NCBI GenBank assembly: GCA_965222155.1
Contig: CBDCTH010000004.1
Span: 352,001-416,000, forward strand
Source: Gammaproteobacteria bacterium
Lineage (GTDB): Bacteria > Pseudomonadota > Gammaproteobacteria > Eutrophobiales > Eutrophobiaceae
Reading direction: 5' to 3'
DNA: 64,000 nucleotides
Part shown: positions 27,834 to 60,792 of the stretch, piece by piece
Position numbering within the stretch: position 1 is the stretch's first letter
How the letters are laid out: the number at the start of each line of letters is the position of its first letter
Notes under the pieces: model-generated
Told to the model about the DNA's origin: nothing
Databases searched by the model: none
What the model saw: the letters and a program-made list of their open reading frames with translations, nothing else
Position numbers and translations under genes: made by a program

Positions 27834-28434
27834 AATTCAGGACACCCATAAATTTGAAGACTCAATCCAGGATAACTTAATTCGGGACACCCATAAATTA
27901 AAACCCTCAATTCAGGACACCCATAAATTAATGGGTGTCCCGGATTTCCATAAATTAATGGGTGTCCCGGATTTCCATAAATTAATGGGTGTCCCGGATT
28001 TCCATAAATTAATGGGTGTCCCGGATTTCCATAAATTAATGGGTGTCCCGGATTTCCATAAATTAATGGGTGTCCCGGATTTCCATAAATTAATGGGTGT
28101 CCCGGATTTCCATAAATTAATGGGTGTCCCGGATTTCCATAAATTAATGGGTGTCCCGGATTTCCATAAATTAATGGGTGTCCCGGATTTCCATAAATTA
28201 ATGGGTGTCCCGGATTTCCATAAATTAATGGGTGTCCCGGATTTCCATAAATTAATGGGTGTCCCGGATTTCCATAAATTAATGGGTGTCCCGGATTTCC
28301 ATAAATTAATGGGTGTCCCGGATTTCCATAAATTAATGGGTGTCCCGGATTTCCATAAATTAATGGGTGTCCCGGATTTCCATAAATTAATGGGTGTCCC
28401 GGATTTCCATAAATTAATGGGTGTCCCGGATTTC
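27834..28434. repeat. Family-1 element: three GGACACCCAT left arms, then 18 perfect 27-bp tandem units ATGGGTGTCCCGGATTTCCATAAATTA plus a partial unit
   Basis: Array 27931-28434 read directly; (28417-27931)/27=18. Confidence 0.95.
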
Positions 28435-40354: not shown

Positions 40355-40936
40355 ATGACTGAATTATCATTCATCTTCCTGGCCGCCTGCCTGGCGAACA
40401 ACCTGGTGACCGACCACCTGCTCGGCGTGAGCCCCATGCTGGCGGCCGCGCAGAAAATCGACATTGCCGTGGATATGGCACTGGCCGTCACAGGCATCAC
40501 CACCCTGGTGGCGTTTATTTCCTGCCTGCTGGACACCTTGTTCATTACCCCCCTGCACCTGGAAAACTACCGGTTGATCATCATGGTCATGACCGTCGTG
40601 TGCGTCTGCCAGTTATCCCGGAAAATACCGGGCGGGTATTTCCCCCGACTGTTTGACCGGGACGGCCGGTTCTATCCGCTGTTGCTGATGAATTGCGCGT
40701 TACTGGGCGTCATACTGCTCAACGCGCAACAGGGGATCAGCCTGCTCGGCGCGCTGTTTTTCGGCGCCGGCGCCGGCCTGGGCTTCTCCCTGGTATTACT
40801 GAGCTTCAGCGCCATAAACCAGCGCCTGATCGTCACCGACCTACCCGCCCCATTCAAAGGCCTCCCCCTGCAAATGGTCACCCTGGGCATCATCTCCCTG
40901 GCCTTCTCAGGCTTCACCAGCCTGATAAAAACGTAA
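40355..40936 (+). CDS. rnfA: Rnf/Rsx complex subunit A
   Basis: ANNLV..LLGVSP, PLLLMNCALLG, PAPFKGLP, LAFSGF. Confidence 0.85.
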   Translation: MTELSFIFLAACLANNLVTDHLLGVSPMLAAAQKIDIAVDMALAVTGITTLVAFISCLLDTLFITPLHLENYRLIIMVMTVVCVCQLSRKIPGGYFPRLFDRDGRFYPLLLMNCALLGVILLNAQQGISLLGALFFGAGAGLGFSLVLLSFSAINQRLIVTDLPAPFKGLPLQMVTLGIISLAFSGFTSLIKT

Positions 40937-40944
40937 TGCTGGAA

Positions 40945-41049
40945 CTCTCCTAATTTGGGACACCCATAAATTGGCTCTCCTAATTTGGGACACCCATAAA
41001 TTAGAGGCACCTGATTTTTTCGATACAATTTATGGGTGTCCTGAATTAG
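40945..41049. repeat. Family-1 element: duplicated ~30-bp left arm plus right arm
   Basis: CTCTCCTAATTTGGGACACCCATAAATT x2 ... TTTATGGGTGTCCTGAATTAG. Confidence 0.9.
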
Positions 41050-41077
41050 GCATGTTGCCTGATACGGCAGTGAGATA

Positions 41078-41590
41078 ATGTTGGAATTGATAATTGTTAC
41101 CCTGGCGCTTTATTTGCTGGCGCAGTCAGCGGCTGTGTTGTTATCCGCAGCAGGCGACACAAATACACGCGCCGGGGAAGAAACCATCAAGGCGCTGGAC
41201 GCGTTGCTGCCCCAGACCCAATGTGGCGATTGCGGCTATCCCGGATGCCTGCCTTATGCCAGGGCAATCGCTGAGCAGGACATCCCGCTAAACTTATGCC
41301 CCCCCGGCGGCGCAGTCACAGTCAGGAAACTGGAGAAATTACTCGGCATGACGTCTTACCGGCATATTGCCCCGGTGACGCCCGAAAATACCATTGCCCT
41401 GATAGACGAAGAAACCTGCATCGGCTGCGTAAAGTGCATTGACGCCTGCCCCGTCGATGCCATCGTCGGCAGCGCCAAACAACTGCACGCAGTCATCCCC
41501 GAATATTGCACAGGTTGCAAACTATGCCTGCCCCCCTGCCCGGTAGACTGCATCTCAATGATCCCCCATATTAATCCGGGACACTCATAA
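41078..41590 (+). CDS. rnfB: Rnf/Rsx complex subunit B
   Basis: [14 protein letters not shown] and two ferredoxin CxxCxxCxxxCP motifs. Confidence 0.93.
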
Positions 41591-41826
41591 AAATCGGGAT
41601 ACTCCTGATTTGTAAGATGCCTAATCCAGGACATCCATAAAATCGGGATACGCCTGGTTTTTATACGATGCAATTTATGGGTGTCCTGAATTAGACTATT
41701 TTTACGTTCCATTATATGGGTGTCCTGAATTAGTCTTCCTGAATTAGCTCTGAATCAGCTTATGCAATTTATGGGTGTCCTGAATTAGTGTCCTGAATTA
41801 GTGTCCTGAATTAGCTTCTGAATTAG
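41575..41826. repeat. Family-1 element cluster including (GTGTCCTGAATTA)x3
   Basis: Degenerate left arms (GGACACTCAT, GGACATCCAT) followed by several right arms. Confidence 0.88.
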
Positions 41827-41871
41827 GATAATATGCAGTGATATTGTGCTTATTTTCGGAGCAGTGGCGGT

Positions 41872-43401
41872 ATGCGTGAATTACATGATTTCCCGGGCGG
41901 GTTGTTGCTGGAGCCGCACAAGGAGATTACCGATCAGAAAATGTCTATCCTGCACCCGCTGCCGGAGCGGATGTTCCTGCCCCTGCAACAGCATATTGGC
42001 CAACCGGCTGAGCCGGTCGTAAAAATCGGCGACAAGGTATTGAAAGGACAGATCATCGCCCGCGCCGACGGCTATATAAGCGTACCCGTCCATGCCAGCA
42101 CATCCGGGAAAATATCGGATATTGGCGATTATCACGTACCGCATCCGACCGTAAGCAAAGCGCCGTGCATCGTACTGGAACCCGATGGAAACGACGCCTG
42201 GTTCGATATCAGGCCGACTGAAGAATACGATCGAACCGAACCGGCGAAACTGCAGGAGTTAATCAAGGATTGCGGCATAGTCGGTCTGGGCGGCGCAGGC
42301 TTCCCGGCCCACGTAAAATTGATGGAGGGGGTGGAAAATGCGGTCGATACGCTAATCATAAACGGCGTTGAATGTGAACCGCATATCAGCTGCGACGATC
42401 GGCTGATCCAGGAAAAAGCCTCCTACGTCGTATCCGGTGCGCGCATGATCCGTCATGCGGTGCAGGCCAGGCATTGCGTGATCGCCGTCGAGGATGACAT
42501 GCACCTGGCATACGACGCCCTGGCCGGCCTGGTTGATGATGACCTGGAACTGGTCAAAGTGCCCACCCGTTTTCCTGCCGGCAGCGAGAATCAGCTTATA
42601 AAAACACTGACCGGCAAGGAGGTCCCCAGCGAGGGCCTGCCGATCCACATCGGCATAGTCATCCACAACGTCGCCACGGCCGCCGCGGTATATCGGGCCA
42701 TCACCCGCGGCGAACCCATCGTCTCGCGCTACGTCACGGTGACCGGAAAAGTGGATAACCCCGTAAACCTGCAAGTCCTGATCGGCACGCCGGTGGAGGA
42801 TTGCCTCGCTACCTGCGGTTATCGACACAGTGAGGATAACAAGGTGATCATCGGTGGCCCCATGACCGGCCTGCGCGTTACCAGCCCCAACATGCCGGTG
42901 ATTAAGACCACCAACTGCGTCTTCATCGAAGAAAATACCCCTGTCCAGCCGGAGATGCCCTGCATCCGCTGCGGCAAATGTGTGGATGTCTGCCCGGCCA
43001 GGCTGCTGCCCCAGCAATTGTACTGGTTCGCCAAAACCGCGGATCTCGACCAGGCCCGGGAATATCGCCTGTTCGATTGTATAGAATGCGGCTGCTGCGC
43101 TTACGTCTGCCCCAGCCGTATCCCGCTGGTGCATTACTACCGCCATGCAAAAACGCAGATTGACGTTGAAGAAAACCATGACCGGGACGCCGACCTGGCG
43201 AGACAGCGCTTTATCCGGAAAAATGAACGTTTGATAAACGAGGCAGCCGAGCGGAAAGCAGCCAAAACAGACCCCGGCGCAGAGCAGGGACAAGACACCA
43301 AAGCTGCAAAAAAAGCCTATGTGCAGGACGCCCTCGCCAGGGTCCGGGCAAAACGCCAAAATCGGTTGAAACCGGAACAAAATACAGACGACTCCGGATG
43401 A
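41872..43401 (+). CDS. rnfC: Rnf/Rsx complex subunit C
   Basis: QQHIG, GLGGAGFP, NGVECEP, GGPMTG, CIRCGKC, CIECGCC. Confidence 0.95.
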   Translation: MRELHDFPGGLLLEPHKEITDQKMSILHPLPERMFLPLQQHIGQPAEPVVKIGDKVLKGQIIARADGYISVPVHASTSGKISDIGDYHVPHPTVSKAPCIVLEPDGNDAWFDIRPTEEYDRTEPAKLQELIKDCGIVGLGGAGFPAHVKLMEGVENAVDTLIINGVECEPHISCDDRLIQEKASYVVSGARMIRHAVQARHCVIAVEDDMHLAYDALAGLVDDDLELVKVPTRFPAGSENQLIKTLTGKEVPSEGLPIHIGIVIHNVATAAAVYRAITRGEPIVSRYVTVTGKVDNPVNLQVLIGTPVEDCLATCGYRHSEDNKVIIGGPMTGLRVTSPNMPVIKTTNCVFIEENTPVQPEMPCIRCGKCVDVCPARLLPQQLYWFAKTADLDQAREYRLFDCIECGCCAYVCPSRIPLVHYYRHAKTQIDVEENHDRDADLARQRFIRKNERLINEAAERKAAKTDPGAEQGQDTKAAKKAYVQDALARVRAKRQNRLKPEQNTDDSG

Positions 43402-44402
43402 TAAACAAAACCAGCAGCTCGCCACACTGGCACGATGGTCAGACCCTGGGGAGGGTGATGACGGACGTGTGCATCGCACTCGTCCCCGGATTGCTTTGTT
43501 ACATTTGGTTGTTCGGCTCCGGCGTGTTGCTGCAATGTATCCTGGCCGTGCTGTTCGCCCTCACGTTCGAATTTACCGTCCTCAAATTGCGTCGCCGCGA
43601 CCCCTGGGTTTCGCTGCGCGACGGCAGCGCGGTCGTCACCGCGTTGCTGTTTGCGGTCAGCATATCTCCGTTAGCGGCCTGGTGGGTCTGCCTGTGTGGG
43701 ATCGCCTTTGCCATCATCATCGCCAAACATGCCTTCGGAGGTATCGGCTACAATATATTCAACCCGGCTATGGCAGGTTTTGTATTCGTCCTGGTCTGCT
43801 TCCCGGTGCAGATGAATACCTGGCCGGCCCTGTCGGCGCACGCTATCGGCGCATACCTGGGCAGCATCTTCCCCGGCGCAGGCTCGGGGCCGGATATGCT
43901 GAGCGGCGCAACGCCCCTGGATGAACTGAAGACCCGGCTGGAAATGATGGAGATGGTGTCGGAGATGAAGACTGCCCAGTTGTTCGGCTATCTTGGCGGG
44001 GCCGGCTGGGAATGGATCAATATCATGTTCATGCTGGGCGGCATCTATTTGTTGTATCGCGGCGTCATCAAGTGGCAAATCCCTGCCGCACTACTGGCAA
44101 GCGTTTTCATCGTCAGCACAGTCCTTTACTTATACGATGCGGAAACCTACGCCTCTCCGCTGTTCCATCTCTTCAGCGGCGGCACGATGTTGTGTGCATT
44201 CTTTATCGCCACGGATCCCGTCACCGCGTCCACGACCAACCGCGGACGCCTGATCTACGGCGCCTTAATCGGAATACTCATCTGCCTGATGCGCCAATGG
44301 GGGGCATTCCCCGACGGGGTGGCTTTCGCGGTACTCCTGGCCAATATCTTCGTCCCGCTGATCGACCTGCTGACCCGCCCAAAGGCATTCGGAGAAACAT
44401 AA
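43398..44402 (+). CDS. rnfD: Rnf/Rsx complex subunit D
   Basis: SSPH, FGGIGYNIFNPAM, SGATPL flavinylation site, ATDPVT. Confidence 0.95.
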   Translation: MINKTSSSPHWHDGQTLGRVMTDVCIALVPGLLCYIWLFGSGVLLQCILAVLFALTFEFTVLKLRRRDPWVSLRDGSAVVTALLFAVSISPLAAWWVCLCGIAFAIIIAKHAFGGIGYNIFNPAMAGFVFVLVCFPVQMNTWPALSAHAIGAYLGSIFPGAGSGPDMLSGATPLDELKTRLEMMEMVSEMKTAQLFGYLGGAGWEWINIMFMLGGIYLLYRGVIKWQIPAALLASVFIVSTVLYLYDAETYASPLFHLFSGGTMLCAFFIATDPVTASTTNRGRLIYGALIGILICLMRQWGAFPDGVAFAVLLANIFVPLIDLLTRPKAFGET

Positions 44403-45019
44403 TGGCCACAAAGGGAAACCCGCTGGTAAATTCTCTGCCGCTGTTATTCATCTGTTTCACGGCAGTGCTGGGTATCTATGCCCTGAGGCAATTTCTTGAG
44501 GATAACATCACCCGCAACCGGCACCTGCCCATCCTTGAGATCAGCGCCGGGATATTGCCCCTTGAGCGCGACAACGACTTGCCCGCAGACAGGTTAAGCG
44601 TCACCATGCCCACGTATTTCGGCACCGAGACCGCGACCTACGTCTATCGCGCGCGATACGGGGAAACCCCGGTGGGGCTTATCTTCAGTCCGCTCCAGGC
44701 CAGGGGCTATAACGGCATCATGGAACTGGCCGTAGGCATTCAATACGATGGAACCCTGGCCGGCGTCAGGATCCTGCAACACCGGGAAACCCCGGGCCTG
44801 GGCGACCAGGTCCACCAGGACAATTCACCCTGGATACTCGGTTTCAACGGCCACTCCCTCGACAACACCCCACAGGAAAACTGGGCAGTGAAAACAGACG
44901 GCGGCATCTTCGACCATATCAGCGGCGCCACCTCCAGCCAACGCGCCGTCATCCGCGCCGTGGAACACACCCTGAACTACTACAACGCCAATCGAAAAAC
45001 CCTCTTTAACCAGGAGTAA
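44402..45019 (+). CDS. rnfG: Rnf/Rsx complex subunit G
   Basis: GYNG, ETPGLG, SGAT flavinylation motif. Confidence 0.92.
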   Translation: MATKGNPLVNSLPLLFICFTAVLGIYALRQFLEDNITRNRHLPILEISAGILPLERDNDLPADRLSVTMPTYFGTETATYVYRARYGETPVGLIFSPLQARGYNGIMELAVGIQYDGTLAGVRILQHRETPGLGDQVHQDNSPWILGFNGHSLDNTPQENWAVKTDGGIFDHISGATSSQRAVIRAVEHTLNYYNANRKTLFNQE

Positions 45020-45151
45020 AATTTGGGACACCCATAAATTTCGTGGTAAAAATTGGGGGAAATTTGGGACACCCATAAAATTTAGGAGTAAAAATCAGGG
45101 GGAAAATTTGGGACACCCATAAAATTTAGGGGTAAAAGTCAGGACACCCGT
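45020..45151. repeat. Four family-1 left arms (GGACACCCRT) abutting the transposase element
   Basis: Arms at 45026, 45067, 45111 and 45142. Confidence 0.9.
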
Positions 45152-46409
45152 AGTATTAAATCGAATGAACCACGCTTTCTATACATTGCGCGGGGATCTC
45201 TTCAGCGACATCAACTCCACGGTAGCTGTATTGCCGGCTGCGCCGGCCTTCAGTAGAGATAAACACAGTAGATGTTGTGCGCTGGTAAACCCCAGCCGGG
45301 CGGCGCGTGGGGTGTGGGGTCAGGCTTGACAGGGTTCAGGTTTAGTTCAGCGAGTAGCTGGCCTGCCAGAGCCAATGCTGGCCGATAGCCTGGCAGTATT
45401 TCTTTATGTGCGTGGCAGACCCCAGTGCCTTCTGATGGGAGAGTACAGGAGGCTTCATAGCTGTTTGCCAATGGGCCGGTGTTATGCTGAGTTGGTCAAT
45501 CAGAGGTGGAGCGTCTTCCGGTATGGCTCCTTGCTTATCCTCCCTGATGATTCGACCCGACCAATCCAGAAGCTGCAGATAGTCATCAAAGTAAAATGGA
45601 AGGTGGTAATAATGGTTCGTCACCGTCTCCGGTTTATCTGATTTGAATGGTAGCAGGTCAGAGCTATTCCCAGCCAGTCGGCGTTTGATGGAGGTGTACT
45701 CCGACCGCATTGGGTTGTGGCTGAGACCGGCTCGGACAGGGTTTAATTCCACATAGGCCAAACATTGCAGTAAAGCGGTTTCATCCAGTAATGCTTGCGA
45801 CAGGAAGCGTCCTTCCCAAAAGCGTCCTTTACAGCCATCCTCCACATTGGCCTTACGGGCGATACGTTCGTTCAAATACCCCATGAAGCGGCTGATGCTG
45901 ATCAGGATTTTGCGCATTCGGGCAATCTCCGTATCGACGATTTCCTTTTCCGCATCTGTTAACACATTCCCTGCTTTGAACCGTACCATAAGTGGACTGA
46001 GGCGATATAACTGCTGCCAGCGGGTAAGTATCGTCTCAGCAGAGAGGGATGCAGCCAGCTCCAGGTTGACTTTGACAATCACATGATAATGATTGGACAT
46101 GATGGCATAACCCACCACATCAACACAAAATGCCCGGGATTGCGCTAAAAGCTGTTGTTCCACCCATTCTCTACGGTGTTGGTAGCTTTTCCCGGACAAG
46201 GCGTCGAAGCCACATAGGAAAGCACGGCGAACACAACGGGAAATACAGTGGTAATAACAAGTTTCTGCAAGACAGATTTGCTGGCGCCGAGCAATGGTCA
46301 TGGTCAACTCCTGTAGTAATTGGGTATCCTGTAACGATTATTGTAATAACGTTTGGCTCAATGTCAATAGTCTGTCCGATGTCTAGAACCGGTTAATTTA
46401 TGGGTGTCC
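45142..46409 (-). mobile_element. Putative autonomous RAYT-like element bounded by inverted GGACACCCRT/ATGGGTGTCC ends
   Basis: Left end 45142-45151 and right end 46400-46409 enclose the Y1 transposase gene. Confidence 0.7.
45342..46307 (-). CDS. REP-associated-like tyrosine (HUH/Y1, IS200-related) transposase
   Basis: YHCISRCVRRAFL, HUH motif MSNHYH, FWEGRF, catalytic YVELNPVRAG. Confidence 0.88.
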   Translation of the reverse strand: MTMTIARRQQICLAETCYYHCISRCVRRAFLCGFDALSGKSYQHRREWVEQQLLAQSRAFCVDVVGYAIMSNHYHVIVKVNLELAASLSAETILTRWQQLYRLSPLMVRFKAGNVLTDAEKEIVDTEIARMRKILISISRFMGYLNERIARKANVEDGCKGRFWEGRFLSQALLDETALLQCLAYVELNPVRAGLSHNPMRSEYTSIKRRLAGNSSDLLPFKSDKPETVTNHYYHLPFYFDDYLQLLDWSGRIIREDKQGAIPEDAPPLIDQLSITPAHWQTAMKPPVLSHQKALGSATHIKKYCQAIGQHWLWQASYSLN

Positions 46410-46424
46410 TGGATTTTTCAGGGC

Positions 46425-46590
46425 AGGTAATTTGGGACACCCATAAATTTCGTGGGGAGGTAATTTGGGACACCCATAAATTTCGTGGGGAGTATTGGGA
46501 CATACATAAAATCAGTTTATGGGTGTCCCAAATTTGCTCCCAAATTTGTCTCTGGAATTTATGGGTGTCCTGAATTTATGTCCTGAATTT
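46425..46590. repeat. Family-1 element: duplicated 32-bp left arm plus right arms
   Basis: AGGTAATTTGGGACACCCATAAATTTCGTGGGG x2; ATGGGTGTCC at ~46519 and 46561. Confidence 0.9.
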
Positions 46591-46606
46591 ATGATAGAGT
46601 ACGGCG

Positions 46607-47989
46607 ATGCGACATTTCCCGGTTTTTCTGGACCTGAATGGGCGCCGTTGTCTTGTGGTCGGCGCTGGTGAGGTGGCCGCGAGGAAAGCCCAGCAATTGC
46701 TCAGGTCGAACGCTGATCTGTTGATCGTCGCGCCCCGGGCGGGGGAGGGGATACTGGCCCTGAAGCAGCAGGGCAGGGTGAGGTATGAGGCAAGGGAATT
46801 CCTGCCGGAAGACGTTAGCGGCTGCGCGCTGGTGATAGCAGCAACGCCTGACAAGCAGGTGAACAGTCAAGTCGCCAGCGCGGCCAAGACCGGCAACGTG
46901 CCGGTCAACGTGGTCGATAACCCCGCCCTGTGCAGCTTCATCATGCCTTCGGTGGTTGACCGGGACCCGGTGCAAATCGCGGTGTCCACGGGCGGGGCCT
47001 CACCGGTCCTGGCCCGGCTGTTACGGGTAAAACTGGAAACGCTGATACCGGCAACCTACGGCCGGCTGGCGACTGTGGTGCGGGAGTTCCGCGGCCGGGT
47101 AAAACAGCGCTTCCCGGAATTCAGACAACGGCGCCGGTTCTGGGAACATATCCTGCAGGGGCCGGTGGTCGAGATGCTGTTTGCCGGACGGGAAGCCGCT
47201 GCCATCGAGGCACTGGAGAACGAACTGGACAAAGCCACGCCGACGGATCACCAGACCGGTGAAGTCTACCTGGTCGGCGGCGGTCCGGGCGATCCTGACC
47301 TGTTGACGTTCCGCGCCCTGCGCCTGATGCAACAGGCCGACGTCGTGCTGTACGACAGGCTGGTTGCCCCGGCCATAGTGGAACTGGTCAGGAAAGAGGC
47401 CCGGCGGATCTACGTAGGCAAACAGAGTGACAGCCATACGGTGCCACAGTCCGAGCTTAACGCCATGCTGGTCAAGCTGGCGCAACAGGGCAAACGCGTA
47501 TTGCGCCTGAAAGGGGGCGACCCGTTCATATTCGGCCGCGGCGGTGAGGAAATTGAGGAACTTGCCGCCGCCGCCGTCCCGTTTCAGGTCGTACCGGGCA
47601 TCACCGCCGCCGCCGGTTGCGCCTCCTACGCCGGCATCCCGTTGACCCACCGCGATTACGCCCAATCCTGCCTGTTCGTAACCGGCCACCTGAAGGATGG
47701 CAAGCTGAACTTTAACTGGCCGGCCCTGATCCAGCCGAAACAGACCGTGGCCATCTACATGGGAGTCAAGGGAATCGACGTGCTACAAAAGAATCTCCTG
47801 GAACACGGCATGGACGCGGATATGCCCGCCGCCATCATTCAGCAAGGCACCACGCCGGAGCAGAAAGTCTATGTGGGAAAGGTATCCACCCTGACAAAAA
47901 CCGTCGCCGCCAATGAGATCAAACCCCCGTCAATGATCGTCATCGGCGAGGTGGTAAAGCTACACGAGAAGCTGACCTGGTACCGGTAA
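46607..47989 (+). CDS. cysG: Siroheme synthase
   Basis: VGAGEVA, NVVDNP, GGGPGDPDLLT, RLKGGDPFIFGRGGEE. Confidence 0.96.
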   Translation: MRHFPVFLDLNGRRCLVVGAGEVAARKAQQLLRSNADLLIVAPRAGEGILALKQQGRVRYEAREFLPEDVSGCALVIAATPDKQVNSQVASAAKTGNVPVNVVDNPALCSFIMPSVVDRDPVQIAVSTGGASPVLARLLRVKLETLIPATYGRLATVVREFRGRVKQRFPEFRQRRRFWEHILQGPVVEMLFAGREAAAIEALENELDKATPTDHQTGEVYLVGGGPGDPDLLTFRALRLMQQADVVLYDRLVAPAIVELVRKEARRIYVGKQSDSHTVPQSELNAMLVKLAQQGKRVLRLKGGDPFIFGRGGEEIEELAAAAVPFQVVPGITAAAGCASYAGIPLTHRDYAQSCLFVTGHLKDGKLNFNWPALIQPKQTVAIYMGVKGIDVLQKNLLEHGMDADMPAAIIQQGTTPEQKVYVGKVSTLTKTVAANEIKPPSMIVIGEVVKLHEKLTWYR

Positions 47990-51269: not shown

Positions 51270-51942
51270 AATTTGGGACACCCATAAATTCATTTTATGG
51301 GTGTCCTGAATTAATGGGTGTCCTGAATTAATGGGTGTCCTGAATTAATGGGTGTCCTGAATTAATGGGTGTCCTGAATTAATGGGTGTCCTGAATTAAT
51401 GGGTGTCCTGAATTAATGGGTGTCCTGAATTAATGGGTGTCCTGAATTAATGGGTGTCCTGAATTAATGGGTGTCCTGAATTAATGGGTGTCCTGAATTA
51501 ATGGGTGTCCTGAATTAATGGGTGTCCTGAATTAATGGGTGTCCTGAATTAATGGGTGTCCTGAATTAATGGGTGTCCTGAATTAAATTAATGCCTTGTT
51601 GAACATTACAAACTCATGGGTGTCCTGAATTAATGGGTGGAATTATGGGTGTCCTGAATTAATGGGTGTCCTGAATTAATGGGTGTCCTGAATTAATGGG
51701 TGTCCTGAATTAATGGGTGTCCTGAATTAATGGGTGTCCTGAATTAATGGGTGTCCTGAATTAATGGGTGTCCTGAATTAATGGGTGTCCTGAATTAATG
51801 GGTGTCCTGAATTAATGGGTGTCCTGAATTAATGGGTGTCCTGAATTAATGGGTGTCCTGAATTAATGGGTGTCCTGAATTAATGGGTGTCCTGAATTAA
51901 TGGGTGTCCTGAATTAATGCCTTGTTGAACATTACAAACTCA
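51270..51942. repeat. Family-1 element: one left arm, then 34 tandem 17-bp units ATGGGTGTCCTGAATTA interrupted by a copy of the downstream flank
   Basis: 17 units at 51297-51585, 1 at 51616, 16 at 51645-51916; ATGCCTTGTTGAACATTACAAACTCA at 51591 and 51917. Confidence 0.95.
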
Positions 51943-54034: not shown

Positions 54035-54098
54035 TAAATTCGGGACACCCATAAATTGATTTTGTGGGTGTCCCGAATTAATGGGTGTCCCAAATTAA
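54035..54098. repeat. Family-1 hairpin element
   Basis: TTCGGGACACCCATAAA...TTTGTGGGTGTCCCGAA, plus an extra right arm. Confidence 0.9.
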
Positions 54099-54644: not shown

Positions 54645-54847
54645 TAAATTCAGGACACCCATAAAATGGGGCAAATTCGGGACATCCATAAAATAGGGGT
54701 CAATCCAGGGGGATAAATTTGGGAGGGTAAATTTAGGAGGTAAATTTAGGACACCCATAAAATGGGCAAGAATAAATCCTGGACACCCACGAAATATTTT
54801 ATGGATGTCCTGAATCTATGGGTGTCCTAAATTTGCGTCCTGAATTG
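54645..54847. repeat. Family-1 element cluster
   Basis: Several GGACAYCCAY left arms, then ATGGRTGTCC right arms. Confidence 0.88.
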
Positions 54848-55466: not shown

Positions 55467-55568
55467 AAATTCAGGACACCCATAAAATGGGACAAATCCG
55501 GGACACCCACAAAATATTTTGTAGATACCCTTAATTTATGGGTGTCCTGAATTAGCTTCCTGAATTAG
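55467..55568. repeat. Family-1 element cluster
   Basis: Two left arms and one right arm with partial duplication. Confidence 0.88.
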
Positions 55569-56199: not shown

Positions 56200-56260
56200 A
56201 AATCCGGGACACCCACGAAATATTTTGTGGATGTCCTGAATTTATGGATGTCCTGAATTT
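56200..56260. repeat. Family-1 hairpin element
   Basis: GGACACCCACGAAATATTTTGTGGATGTCC plus an extra right arm. Confidence 0.85.
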
Positions 56261-57611: not shown

Positions 57612-57719
57612 TAAATTCGGGACACCCATAAATTGGGTTTGGGAGGGATGAATTTGGGACACCCATGAATTGAATTTATGGGTGTCCTGAAATTGGAAAT
57701 TAATGGGTGTCCTGAATTA
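57612..57719. repeat. Family-1 element cluster
   Basis: Two left arms and two right arms. Confidence 0.88.
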
Positions 57720-58998: not shown

Positions 58999-59112
58999 TA
59001 TGGGTGTCCCGAATTTATGGGTGTCCTGAATTAGCTTCCCGTCCTGAACTAGCCCTTAGAAAGATTCAGGGACGGGTATCAACCCGTCCGTAATTCATGG
59101 GTGTCCTAAATT
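58999..59112. repeat. Family-1 right arms
   Basis: Three ATGGGTGTCC copies after the ATPase stop. Confidence 0.85.
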
Positions 59113-59669: not shown

Positions 59670-60060
59670 AGACTGGATGCCGGGTGAAGCCCGGCATGGC
59701 GACGGGGACGCCGGGTCACAGCAAATCCGGGACCAAATCCGGGACACCCATAAAATCGTTTTGTGGGTGTCCCGAATTAATGGGTGTCCTGAATTAATGG
59801 GTGTCCTGAATTAATGGGTGTCCTGAATTAATGGGTGTCCTAATGGGTGTCCTGAATTAATGTCCTGAATTAATGGGTGTCCCGAATTAATGGGTGTCCT
59901 GAATTAATGGGTGTGAATTAATGGGTGTCCCGAATTAATGGGTGTCCCGAATTAATGGGTGTCCCGAATGAATTAATGGGTGTCCCGAATTAATGGGTGT
60001 CCCGAATTAATGGGTGTCCCGAATTAAGGGTGTCCCGAATTAATGGGTGTCCCGAATTAG
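59670..60060. repeat. Family-2 REP, then family-1 hairpin with a degenerate 17-bp tandem array (~16 units with internal deletions)
   Basis: ATGGGTGTCC(C/T)GAATTA units from ~59764 to 60059, including truncated units. Confidence 0.92.
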
Positions 60061-60608: not shown

Positions 60609-60792
60609 GATGCATTTCTCCTTATCAGTTCAGGTGGCGTTCACGAATAGCGCGGAGCCGGGCATGTAATACAAACCCGTCCCCGTGTCAGACATATTAT
60701 TATAGATAACGCGAAATAAGCAAATTCAGGATAAGCAAATTCAGGACACCCATAAATTCACTTTGCAGAAAGAACCGGGCCAGGCTTCAACC

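Follow-up and report, generated by a model that had tools for sequence, protein, structure and literature searches.

The locus described here, from an uncultured gammaproteobacterium, raises the question of whether repeat elements lying between genes alter the DNA of the genes on either side. The window, i.e. the whole stretch of 64,000 nucleotides analysed (F1 cluster coordinates are those of contig C4 minus 352000), contains the rnf genes and cysG, interspersed with clusters of a short repeat, F1, and a preliminary description had reported third codon positions rich in C and A at gene ends running into such clusters and poor in them at gene starts just downstream. On recounting the codons with A or C in third position (M3; M is A/C and K is G/T), five of the six hand counts were reproduced exactly and rnfA differed by one (36/45 last codons instead of 37/45, with zero T), while whole-gene M3 of the genes counted was 0.52–0.64.

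The rnfA end (last 60 codons, 40754..40933, + strand, of the gene at 40355-40936) runs into an F1 cluster (++-) at the rnfA/rnfB junction (40951..41048), recognized from its repeat copies and its fold as a REPIN-like hairpin, which, folded as DNA, has a 24-bp stem with −19.2 kcal/mol and z=−6.9; the same junction measures just about 10 nt in genomes G020, G003 and G008. In a per-gene comparison of orthologues that took in seven genomes, M3 of the rnfA end was 33/40, 34/44 and 33/44 where F1 is present and 23/40, 22/40 and 21/40 where the site is empty. At the rnfG end (last 65 codons, 44822..45016, + strand, gene 44402-45019), followed by an F1 cluster (+++) at 45019..45125, M3 is 53/66, with 54/65, 52/64 and 51/64 in occupied orthologues and 44/66, 37/65 and 38/65 in empty ones; at the cysG start (first 70 codons, 46607..46816, + strand), preceded by a cluster (-++--) at 46393..46590, it is 23/70, with 16, 20, 20 and 26 of 70 in occupied orthologues, 37/70 in G003 and 34/70 in G008. 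At all three sites the skew is missing without the element, M3 of the element-free orthologues being as their amino acids predict, so the skew must have developed on the spot and does not reflect a choice of insertion site. The internal control rnfD (43398..44402, + strand), which has no adjacent repeat, gave 21/40 at its start and 25/40 at its end; in each of the seven genomes its values lie near those expected from the amino acids.

The two remaining gene starts behave in other ways. The G/T-rich start of rnfC (first 60 codons, 41872..42051, + strand; M3 10/36) lies downstream of an F1 cluster (++---) in the rnfB/rnfC spacer (41578..41813), and its M3 is 8–13/36 across all seven genomes, each of which carries an F1-like copy upstream; the rnfC-start and rnfB-end skews are common to all seven. 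The gene rnfB itself (41078..41590, + strand) has its stop codon inside an F1 copy, an F1-like copy at 41573-41584 overlapping its 3' end. Its G/T-rich start (M3 4/21) was ruled out as element-linked: empty-site orthologues give 7, 5 and 5 of 21, against an amino-acid expectation of 8–9, and since they share the skew it is largely a matter of Leu-rich amino-acid composition.

Elsewhere in the window, the gene end adjoining an array of 22 F1 copies (+++ then 19 -; 27839..28427, C4:379839-380427), the 27.7–28.6 kb example of the preliminary description, has a shift (S) of +0.25, and the gene start adjoining a 34-copy array (51275..51910, C4:403275-403910) has S=+0.14. Nine further clusters lie between 54042 and 60756 (including 54042-54091, 54652-54828, 55473-55548, 56241-56254, 57619-57713, 59014-59107, 59741-60053 and 60743-60756), and the gene ends adjoining sites 54035 and 57612, which are paralogues, have S=+0.19 each.

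Genome-wide, the F1 core GGACACCCAT is present in 237 copies forming 67 clusters, and its copy number varies in tandem arrays. The unit consists of two inverted 21-nt arms (AATTYYRGGACACCCATWAATT) giving a REPIN-like hairpin, the arms being lopsided in base content, one C/A-rich and the other G/T-rich. The family is tied to a single, vertically inherited gene for a RAYT-like Y1 (HUH) transposase of 321 aa (45342..46307, − strand), flanked by F1 repeats on both sides and assigned from profile matches below the curated cut-offs (Pfam Y1_Tnp, E=4.8e-4, 20.7 bits, cut-off 23; NCBIfam REP_Tyr_transpos, E=9.9e-11, 41.7 bits, cut-off 80). By tblastn the genome has one full copy; the gene is present in 14 of the 22 other genomes of the genus, in 12 of these as a single copy, and its position beside the rnf genes is conserved. 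Half of the F1 clusters lie within about 80 kb of it. In G003 and G008 the gene was not found and the repeats are almost missing, F1 remnants being present.

For the whole genome, 3,910 genes were called with a home-made ORF caller and no annotation was used. A metagene of 2,489 genes, with M3 of 0.475–0.505 in each 10-codon bin, shows no general skew at gene starts or gene ends. The third positions of the nearest 60 codons were then corrected for amino acids and read on the strand running into the hairpin, with F1 in the 5'-flank orientation. The shift toward C/A was +0.136±0.024 at 17 F1-facing gene ends and +0.065±0.028 at 19 starts, against +0.011±0.002 at 2,609 control ends and −0.001±0.002 at 2,603 control starts (Mann-Whitney p=1.2e-6; 4-fold sites, p=1.0e-5). 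The skew noted by hand is thus specific to F1 sides across the genome, with controls near zero. Left flanks (+0.115±0.030) mirror right flanks (+0.081±0.023), and both sides of F1 and both gene orientations are affected, whereas on the motif's 3' side the shift is −0.023±0.018 (n=22). By codon position 1, 2 and 3 the shift is +0.003, +0.011 and +0.108, and at 4-fold sites of gene ends C changes by +.118 and G by −.150. Noncoding spacers are shifted too, at gene ends (0.588±0.026 vs 0.508, p=.006) and at gene starts (0.541±0.018 vs 0.495, p=.016), and therefore the effect is not one of codon usage. In successive 10-codon bins outward from F1 the shift is.09,.19,.20,.16,.13 and.11, then about zero; it fades past 150–200 nt, and the profile is hump-shaped, with its maximum 10–40 codons from the gene boundary and the 10 nearest codons weaker. 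The more copies a cluster has, the stronger the skew tends to be (rho=0.43, p=.011). The skew is unevenly spread: raw shifts of at least 0.2 occur at 30.6% of the 36 F1 sides (11/36, most of them inside one 100-kb region) and at 1.15% of controls, and outside that region F1 sides shift by just +0.055±0.026 (n=16).

Among the families tested, the skew belongs to F1 only. No flank shift was seen at any of five other repeat families, one of them a perfect 26-nt palindrome, so that the same polarity previously seen by eye around family-2 REPs was not borne out. No effect was found at 117 REP-adjacent gene sides of E. coli, where gene ends upstream of REPs have a 4-fold dC of −.03 to −.04 and no C enrichment, nor at the main repeat of a Psychromonas genome (1.2 Mb covered) that carries homologues of this RAYT.

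Comparison of lineages dates the skew. Among the fixed differences that separate clades with the element from clades without it, changes toward C/A outnumber the reverse by 62:14 in the near flanks and by 107:88 in gene interiors, and the build-up is mainly a gain of C (from T 29, G 24 and A 13 of 95). In a paired comparison over 21 sites, occupied genes exceed element-free ones (.117 vs.055, p=.0055), and the skew is also there at the orthologous sites of four further genomes (S of.134,.102,.092 and.074), of which three are single-contig assemblies. The skew at silent sites beside F1 is real, about 200 bases in reach and younger than the arrival of the repeats, which seem to reshape the DNA of neighbouring genes. 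Its later history is uneven. At the 12 flanks where each of the four genomes compared has the element, K>M:M>K is 6:14 in G000, 11:6 in G019, 16:15 in G014 and 17:44 in G022; in G014 no RAYT homologue was found and the skew is kept, and in G022 the RAYT is present and the skew is being lost. At ten sites where G022 alone carries the element, K>M is not in excess (20:31; empty sister G014, 17:19), and 32 sites occupied solely in G014, G022 or G020 have S of.035 vs.034. At orthologous sites, element-free G003 and G008 keep about half the excess (.055±.022; sites that were never occupied,.011±.012; p=.07); at the gene 39 end, gene 80 end, gene 77 start and rnfB end their skew matches that of G000, and a different repeat family occupies the same intergenic regions.

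After the arrival of an F1 hairpin between two genes, some 150–200 bp on each outer side drift in composition, the strand leading into the hairpin losing G (and T) and gaining C and A, so that the strand leading out becomes G/T-rich, with unconstrained sites alone moving. The most likely reading of this drift, to which we give a probability of roughly 40%, is a strand-asymmetric mutational process starting at the F1 element. The RAYT could, for instance, make a cut at the hairpin's foot and leave a 3'-OH, which a host polymerase would extend outward over a short tract, or the flank might be resected to a single strand; repeated resynthesis or exposure of the outward strand would then build up G/T. 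In the available part of Ton-Hoang et al. (PMC3333891), cleavage by TnpAREP is modelled as yielding a 3'-OH that is extended by host polymerases or degraded by nucleases. The activity appears to have been episodic: strong in the common ancestor of G000, G019, G014 and G022, and by now reduced or switched off in some lineages.

Current substitution rates speak in part for this process. Inward-strand G>A at F1 flanks has a rate 2.0-fold that of gene interiors (p=4e-5); at gene-start flanks outward-strand C>T reaches 3.2-fold the rate of interiors (p=4e-7) and 2.2-fold that of control gene starts (p=4e-4), an excess in favour of mutation, and the skew-neutral changes C>A and A>C are about doubled (p=8e-4 and p=.03). 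Gene-end flanks are losing skew at present (K>M 38, M>K 77), with a K>M rate that is not raised (.097 vs.108 in interiors). This loss, the unbiased G022-only sites, the mismatch between RAYT and skew in G014 and G022 and the E. coli null are against continuing mutagenesis. Furthermore, plain cytosine deamination does not predict a build-up by C gains, synthesis primed at a nick should have its greatest effect in the 10 codons beside the element, where the profile dips, and the nulls in other families, E. coli and Psychromonas and the small effect outside the hot region also count against a mutational process. Of the localized, hairpin-centred mutation first proposed, the locality, mirror symmetry, confinement to silent sites and origin in place have stood, while the evidence for mutation as the cause is mixed; the corollary that elements mutagenize their neighbours gains from the gene-start C>T excess and loses from gene-end decay and the ten G022-only sites.

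A possible but somewhat doubtful alternative is selection at silent sites, by which the flank leading into a fixed hairpin evolves to be G-poor and unstructured, either kept from competing with the partner arm for pairing, as RNA or single-stranded DNA, or acting as a C-rich, G-poor tract like a Rho loading (rut) region upstream of the hairpin; transcription attenuation at BIMEs depends on Rho. The rise of C and fall of G at gene ends, the predominance of C gains and the hump-shaped profile fit this, as does the reduced loss of C in extant lineages (C>T and C>G at 0.72 and 0.65 of the interior rate), which, with K>M not raised, resembles purifying selection. The null at E. coli REPs could likewise be explained, since REP arms are without the C/A versus G/T asymmetry of F1. 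The shift is, however, very large for silent sites (M3 of about 80% vs 55% over 45–66 codons) and symmetric, the antisense strand of downstream gene starts included, and the tracts lie in translated ORFs, some of them internal to an operon (rnfA-rnfB), a setting that would shield a rut site or make it harmful. The left and right flanks of a given cluster show no specific complementarity (−64.2 vs −60.5 kcal/mol, p=.17), the analogous prediction for the F3 palindrome fails (dC −.030±.012 vs −.014 in controls), and a 3.2-fold C>T at gene starts would need strong selection, at odds with a modest shift in equilibrium.

It is improbable that the skew preceded the elements, with F1 settling or surviving preferentially beside gene ends and starts of that composition, and that it is a relic or the effect of some other property of these intergenic hot spots. 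The half excess and the equally skewed sites in G003 and G008 point that way, as do the zero skew of lineage-specific insertions, the present decay at gene ends and the presence of another repeat family in the same intergenic regions, which are therefore insertion hot spots; against this, the residual skew may reflect past occupancy, because F1 remnants occur in both genomes. A composition model predicts.037,.040 and.046 for codon positions 1–3, and 0/5,000 simulations reach the observed contrast; among control sides, an S of 0.2 or more is scarce. The empty rnfA-rnfB junction, rnfG end and cysG start have amino-acid-expected M3 in two or three outgroup genomes, and therefore the ancestral state was unskewed. 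Decay is also slower than neutral (M>K 77 seen vs about 110 expected from interior rates), and the data reject a model in which the skew is purely a decaying relic (p=.006 and p=1.5e-4). Chance or artefact (eye-picked genes, pseudo-replication by paralogous flanks, gene-caller errors, faults of a metagenome-assembled genome) is very improbable: 29 of 91 flanks in an element-centred analysis resemble another flank (paralogues, duplicated contigs), contamination is estimated at 7.28% and one 100-kb region supplies most of the signal, but the gene-side test used 36 distinct long genes and holds without a paralogue (n=35, +0.096±0.020, p=3.4e-6), the skew recurs in the four other genomes, and gene-end frames are independent of the caller because they are set by stop codons.

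F1 most resembles the REPIN-RAYT systems, in which REP/BIME elements are accompanied by a REP-associated tyrosine transposase, as presented in the available parts of Nunvar 2010 (PMC2817692), Bertels & Rainey 2011 (PMC3116915) and Ton-Hoang 2012 (PMC3333891). It shares with them short intergenic repeats in inverted pairs forming a long hairpin, a Y1/HUH transposase gene flanked by its own repeats at a conserved site, near absence of the repeats where that gene was not found and variable tandem copy number. It differs in its AT-rich arm with a GGACACCC core, itself no palindrome, in its long protein under both cut-offs, in having half its clusters within about 80 kb of the gene and in its flank footprint, which E. 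coli REPs are without; a full-text literature search found no description of a compositional footprint in genes flanking REPIN-RAYT elements.

Repair-induced mutations in flanking DNA of human cells and episomes (Chen, Miller & Furano, eLife 2014, PMC3999860) are similar in that processing of a local lesion raises the mutation rate of neighbouring DNA; in the available part of that paper mismatch repair is the trigger, and neither a mobile element nor an evolutionary footprint figures. In EvolvR, nCas9 fused to error-prone Pol I, the part of the source available (PMC13577105) describes extension of the 3'-OH at a site-specific nick by a nick-translating polymerase and, beside the nick, a one-directional window of raised mutation of 10–60 bp. 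The mutational process favoured here likewise assumes a nick, polymerase extension and a short one-directional window; EvolvR, as covered there, is engineered, whereas the F1 tract extends over about 150–200 bp from a hypothetical nick.

The C-rich, G-poor tract of about 100–200 nt upstream of the F1 hairpin at gene 3' ends resembles rut regions, but the F1 tract lies inside translated ORFs, has a mirror image on the antisense strand where downstream genes start and is also raised in A and lowered in T, and E. coli gene ends before REPs are without C enrichment. In replication strand asymmetry the leading strand has more G than C and more T than A, with a polarity switch at the origin. F1 shows the same base classes and polarity, the plus strand being C/A-rich to the left and G/T-rich to the right, restricted to weakly constrained sites. 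Unlike replication asymmetry, the F1 skew spans about 200 bp per side and not a replichore, is independent of which side faces the fork, has third-position C-G and A-T skews of about 0.2, several-fold larger than the chromosome-scale M3 shift of about 0.07, and recurs dozens of times, always around a mobile hairpin element.

The genome under study (G000; 4.55 Mb in 12 contigs, 53% G+C), in which the window corresponds to C4:352001-416000, has close relatives deposited as uncultured 'Gammaproteobacteria bacterium' MAGs. Every gene-based number was obtained with our own hexamer-based ORF caller (3,910 genes, 83% coding). The preliminary description had counted by hand a mirror-image skew between C/A and G/T at third codon positions around repeats, and had proposed a local strand-asymmetric mutational process. 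Recounting gave the same picture: the third position is A or C (its share is termed M3 below) in 36/45 of the last codons of rnfA (window 40355-40936; no T) and 53/66 of the last codons of rnfG (44402-45019), and in 4/21 of the first codons of rnfB (41078-41590), 10/36 of rnfC (41872-43401) and 23/70 of cysG (46607-47989), with 21/40 and 25/40 at the start and end of rnfD, located between rnfC and rnfG. In a metagene of 2,489 genes M3 stayed at 0.475-0.505 in each 10-codon bin, without a general trend at starts or ends. The same skew at repeat-free gene starts and ends, the first outcome that the preliminary description had named as speaking against it, is therefore not what was observed, and the skew cannot be put down to gene boundaries in general.

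Repeat families were found by k-mer counting. The family F1, whose 21-nt unit AATTYYRGGACACCCATWAATT bears AATT at its ends, is present in 237 copies (at most 1 mismatch) grouped in 67 clusters, the reversed genome giving 6 copies. The clusters are nearly always of the form (+)n(-)m, i.e. inverted arms, and as in REPINs the inverted pairs fold into a long hairpin, such as that at 40976-41052 (24-bp stem, -19.2 kcal/mol, z=-6.9). At 27839-28427 and 51275-51910 the arms form extended one-sided tandem arrays, with 22 and 34 copies, respectively; since the same sites hold minimal one-plus-one units in G014 and G022, two other genomes of the genus, array length changes fast between species. About 30 of the 67 clusters lie within ~80 kb (C4:379000-459000, i.e. 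window 27000-64000 and beyond) around the single RAYT-like gene, the other half being distributed over the rest of the 4.55-Mb genome, which suggests local spread or local retention. F1 copies also provide stop codons and reshape protein C-termini: rnfB terminates within a copy (41573-41590), and the C-terminus of rnfA varies among genomes exactly at the start of the element, ending before the stop codon in …SLIKT, …GLD or …LIA, and in …AIT where the element is absent. C4:418000-428500 contains at least five copies of a small gene (~90-125 aa) that is followed, after 41 nt, by an F1 cluster; their flanks share 97-99% identity. Contigs C7 and C10 both carry two F1 clusters with identical neighbours, which points to duplicated contigs and is consistent with the contamination estimate of 7.28%.

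F1 copies at 45019-45125 and 46393-46590 flank, on either side, a minus-strand ORF of 321 aa (45342-46307). Its translation scored 20.7 bits against Pfam Y1_Tnp (cut-off 23, E=4.8e-4) and 41.7 bits against NCBIfam NF047646 REP_Tyr_transpos (cut-off 80, E=9.9e-11), and contains H-Y-H (…SNHYHVIV…) and …YVELNPVRAGL…, which we take to be the HUH and catalytic-Tyr motifs. With both profile scores under the cut-off, the ORF is, judged from its sequence, a putative diverged Y1/HUH transposase, and F1 and this RAYT-like gene together are composed like a REPIN-RAYT system. Few repeats are as common in bacterial genomes as REPINs and REPs; the 5' foot of a REP carries a conserved cleavage/recognition tetranucleotide, GTAG in E. 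coli, and the REP is cleaved by the RAYT. One full copy of the gene is present in the genome; it occurs in 14 of the 22 other genomes of the genus, once each in 12, and adjoins rnf genes in several. Apart from four copies in G009, two matches in G021 that are adjoining pieces on one contig, a homologue with an internal stop (TAA) in G015 and only a distant partial match in G002, it is present once per genome where found, is inherited vertically and accompanies the repeat family. Among the 22 genomes searched no homologue was found in G003, G008, G004, G005, G010, G012, G017 and G014, and G003 and G008 contain 4 and 2 F1 copies, respectively, in 120 kb. G014 (single contig, 99% complete) holds ~100 F1 copies in 140 kb with no homologue found with this query; it and G015 may harbour orphaned REPIN populations. 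Marine Gammaproteobacteria widely carry homologues with 42-48% identity to the 321-aa protein; three complete genomes have 3-6 copies each, whereas one copy is the rule in the present genus.

For the genome-wide analysis every flank was oriented to the strand reading into the hairpin (the inward strand). Up to 200 nt from the outermost F1 copy, the A/C share at third positions was 0.587, versus 0.513 at 300-900 nt, a near-minus-far shift of +0.073±0.014 (n=72, p=3.5e-6); codon positions 1 and 2 gave -0.012 and +0.013, and flanks 3' of an F1 motif -0.023±0.018 (n=22). As 29 of 91 flanks resemble another flank, we relied on a gene-side test restricted to long genes. Corrected for amino acids, the shift was +0.136±0.024 at 17 F1-facing gene ends and +0.065±0.028 at 19 starts, against +0.011±0.002 and -0.001±0.002 at control ends and starts (MWU p=1.2e-6; p=3.4e-6 minus one paralogue), and at 4-fold sites it reached +0.170 and +0.082. 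The skew is found on both sides of the clusters, extends over 50-60 codons, being weaker in the first 10, and is accompanied by a skew in the same direction in noncoding gene-to-element spacers. It rises with the copy number of the cluster (rho=0.43, p=.011) and amounts to +0.134±0.026 (n=20) inside the hot region around the RAYT-like gene versus +0.055±0.026 (n=16) outside; within C4 no relation to distance from that gene was detected (rho=-0.21, p=.35).

Several simpler sources of the skew were rejected. Amino-acid composition accounts for the rnfB start and was excluded overall by the corrected and 4-fold tests, and dependence on replication direction by the effect on both sides of the clusters. 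Against the flanks belonging to a longer repeated element, resemblance among them is confined to paralogues and duplicated contigs (the 29/91 flanks), and extension of the hairpin stem into the flanks, or palindrome growth by template switching, was unsupported (duplex energy -64.2 versus -60.5, p=.17, 24 clusters). A position of the hot region at the origin was rejected, dnaA being on another contig (C12). The plus-strand A+C share at third positions falls from 0.52 at C4 360-440 kb to 0.44-0.47 past 440 kb, an origin-type polarity switch despite the location of dnaA on C12.

Syntenic regions from six genomes of the genus, with 87 genes codon-aligned, allowed occupied and empty sites to be compared. 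At the rnfA end M3 is 75-83% in four F1-bearing genomes versus 52-57% in G020, G003 and G008, where the rnfA-rnfB gap is ~10 nt and M3 equals the amino-acid expectation. The rnfG end has 80-83% with F1 versus 57-67% without, and the cysG start 23-37% versus 49-53%; the rnfB-start, rnfC-start and rnfB-end examples are uninformative because they are alike in all seven genomes. Over 21 sites the skew was.117 where occupied (G000/G019) and.055 where empty (G003/G008; p=.0055). Fixed third-position differences between the F1-bearing clade and the shared state of G003 and G008 ran 62:14 toward C/A in near flanks (p=2e-8), versus 107:88 in interiors and 90:60 in control flanks. From these orthologue contrasts and fixed differences it follows that the skew arose in place, in the element-bearing lineage. 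A preference of the element for inserting into C/A-rich flanks was rejected by the codon-position contrast: such a model predicts shifts of.037,.040 and.046 at positions 1, 2 and 3, whereas.003,.011 and.108 were observed, a pattern that was not reproduced in any of 5,000 simulations. In several intergenic regions that carry F1 in G000, G003 and G008 have another multi-hairpin repeat of greater length, which resembles the F4 family of G000 (…CATTCCGGCGAATGCCGGAATCCAGT…); evidently more than one repeat family makes use of these intergenic sites.

Whether the force still acts was addressed with substitutions polarised by parsimony (K, G or T; M, A or C), and the signals are mixed, varying by side and lineage. 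In pooled near flanks K>M and M>K counts are about equal despite M fractions of.73 and.68, and a pure relic was thereby rejected (p=.006 and 1.5e-4). Gene-start flanks are still gaining skew (53:34), and there C>T on the outward strand, which leaves the hairpin, is 3.2-fold relative to interiors (p=4e-7) and 2.2-fold relative to control starts (p=4e-4). At gene ends the flanks now lose it (38:77), but more slowly than interior rates predict. On asymmetric synthesis or exposure of the two strands as the cause, the substitution spectra give mixed evidence: in near flanks inward-strand G>A is doubled, but the build-up spectrum consists mostly of inward-strand changes to C. The skew persists in G019 and G014 and is being lost in G022 and G000, a difference that does not track the presence of the RAYT gene; F1 sites found in a single lineage showed neither skew nor induced bias.

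The genome contains at least five other abundant repeat families, among them a perfect 26-nt palindrome, GGGGGACAGATTTAAATCTGTCCCCC, with 103 copies, and TTTGGGGTCAGAGTAAAAATA, with 140. Five other families showed no flank skew, and a property of any hairpin repeat was accordingly rejected. The same holds for a general REP-RAYT property, the REPs of E. coli K-12 being free of skew (first 1.6 Mb, 117 REP-adjacent gene sides: -0.018±0.008 versus -0.006±0.002). A property of repeats in a genome carrying homologues of this RAYT found no support in 1.2 Mb of G041 (a Psychromonas sp. record), where the top noncoding repeat, which may or may not be RAYT-associated, gave -0.013±0.010 (n=25). The footprint has thus been seen in a single repeat family from a single genus, and not in E. 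coli. F1 is an element of an ordinary kind, and the footprint appears to be undescribed: a full-text literature search found no description of one.

The cause we favour, with a probability of roughly 0.4, is a mutational asymmetry starting at the F1 element. A serious rival, which we hold to be somewhat less probable, is selection favouring an approach to the hairpin that is poor in G and free of structure, and insertion preference or a relic is unlikely on the codon-position and pooled near-flank evidence. None of the three explains all data. In one version of the mutational reading, cleavage by RAYT would leave a 3'-OH that would then be extended or resected. The model of BIME amplification outlined by Ton-Hoang et al. 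(PMC3333891) already includes such a step, and its extension part is mimicked, in outline, by engineered mutators combining a nick with Pol I (PMC13577105). Tentatively, and with less confidence than the asymmetry as such, RAYT-nicked hairpins may be miniature two-sided start points of repair synthesis that continuously rewrite silent sites over ~200 bp of both neighbours. If so, they would be a natural counterpart of the engineered nick-plus-polymerase mutators, and the footprint would reveal, for the first time through base composition, the activity of RAYTs in living cells. To our knowledge, the in vivo role of REPIN/REP transposases is largely unknown. A strand-specific footprint of 200 bp at silent sites of neighbouring genes would represent a new kind of local mutational or selective landscape in bacteria, would allow the activity and age of elements to be read by computation alone, and would caution against treating synonymous sites beside such repeats as neutral.

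Two known systems offer a comparison. A Rho-dependent terminator has a C-rich, G-poor stretch of untranslated RNA (rut) upstream of the release site and a pause hairpin. The F1-facing gene ends resemble a rut region in their C-rich, G-poor composition but depart from it in that the tract is translated, occupying the final 60 codons, and has a mirror image on the antisense strand at gene starts. Replication asymmetry produces a skew of G+T versus C+A at weakly constrained sites, with a sign that flips where synthesis starts. The F1 skew is of the same type, being found only at third positions and in noncoding DNA and changing sign across each F1 cluster; in polarity each cluster looks like a miniature replication origin, with the strand leaving the hairpin G/T-rich on both sides.
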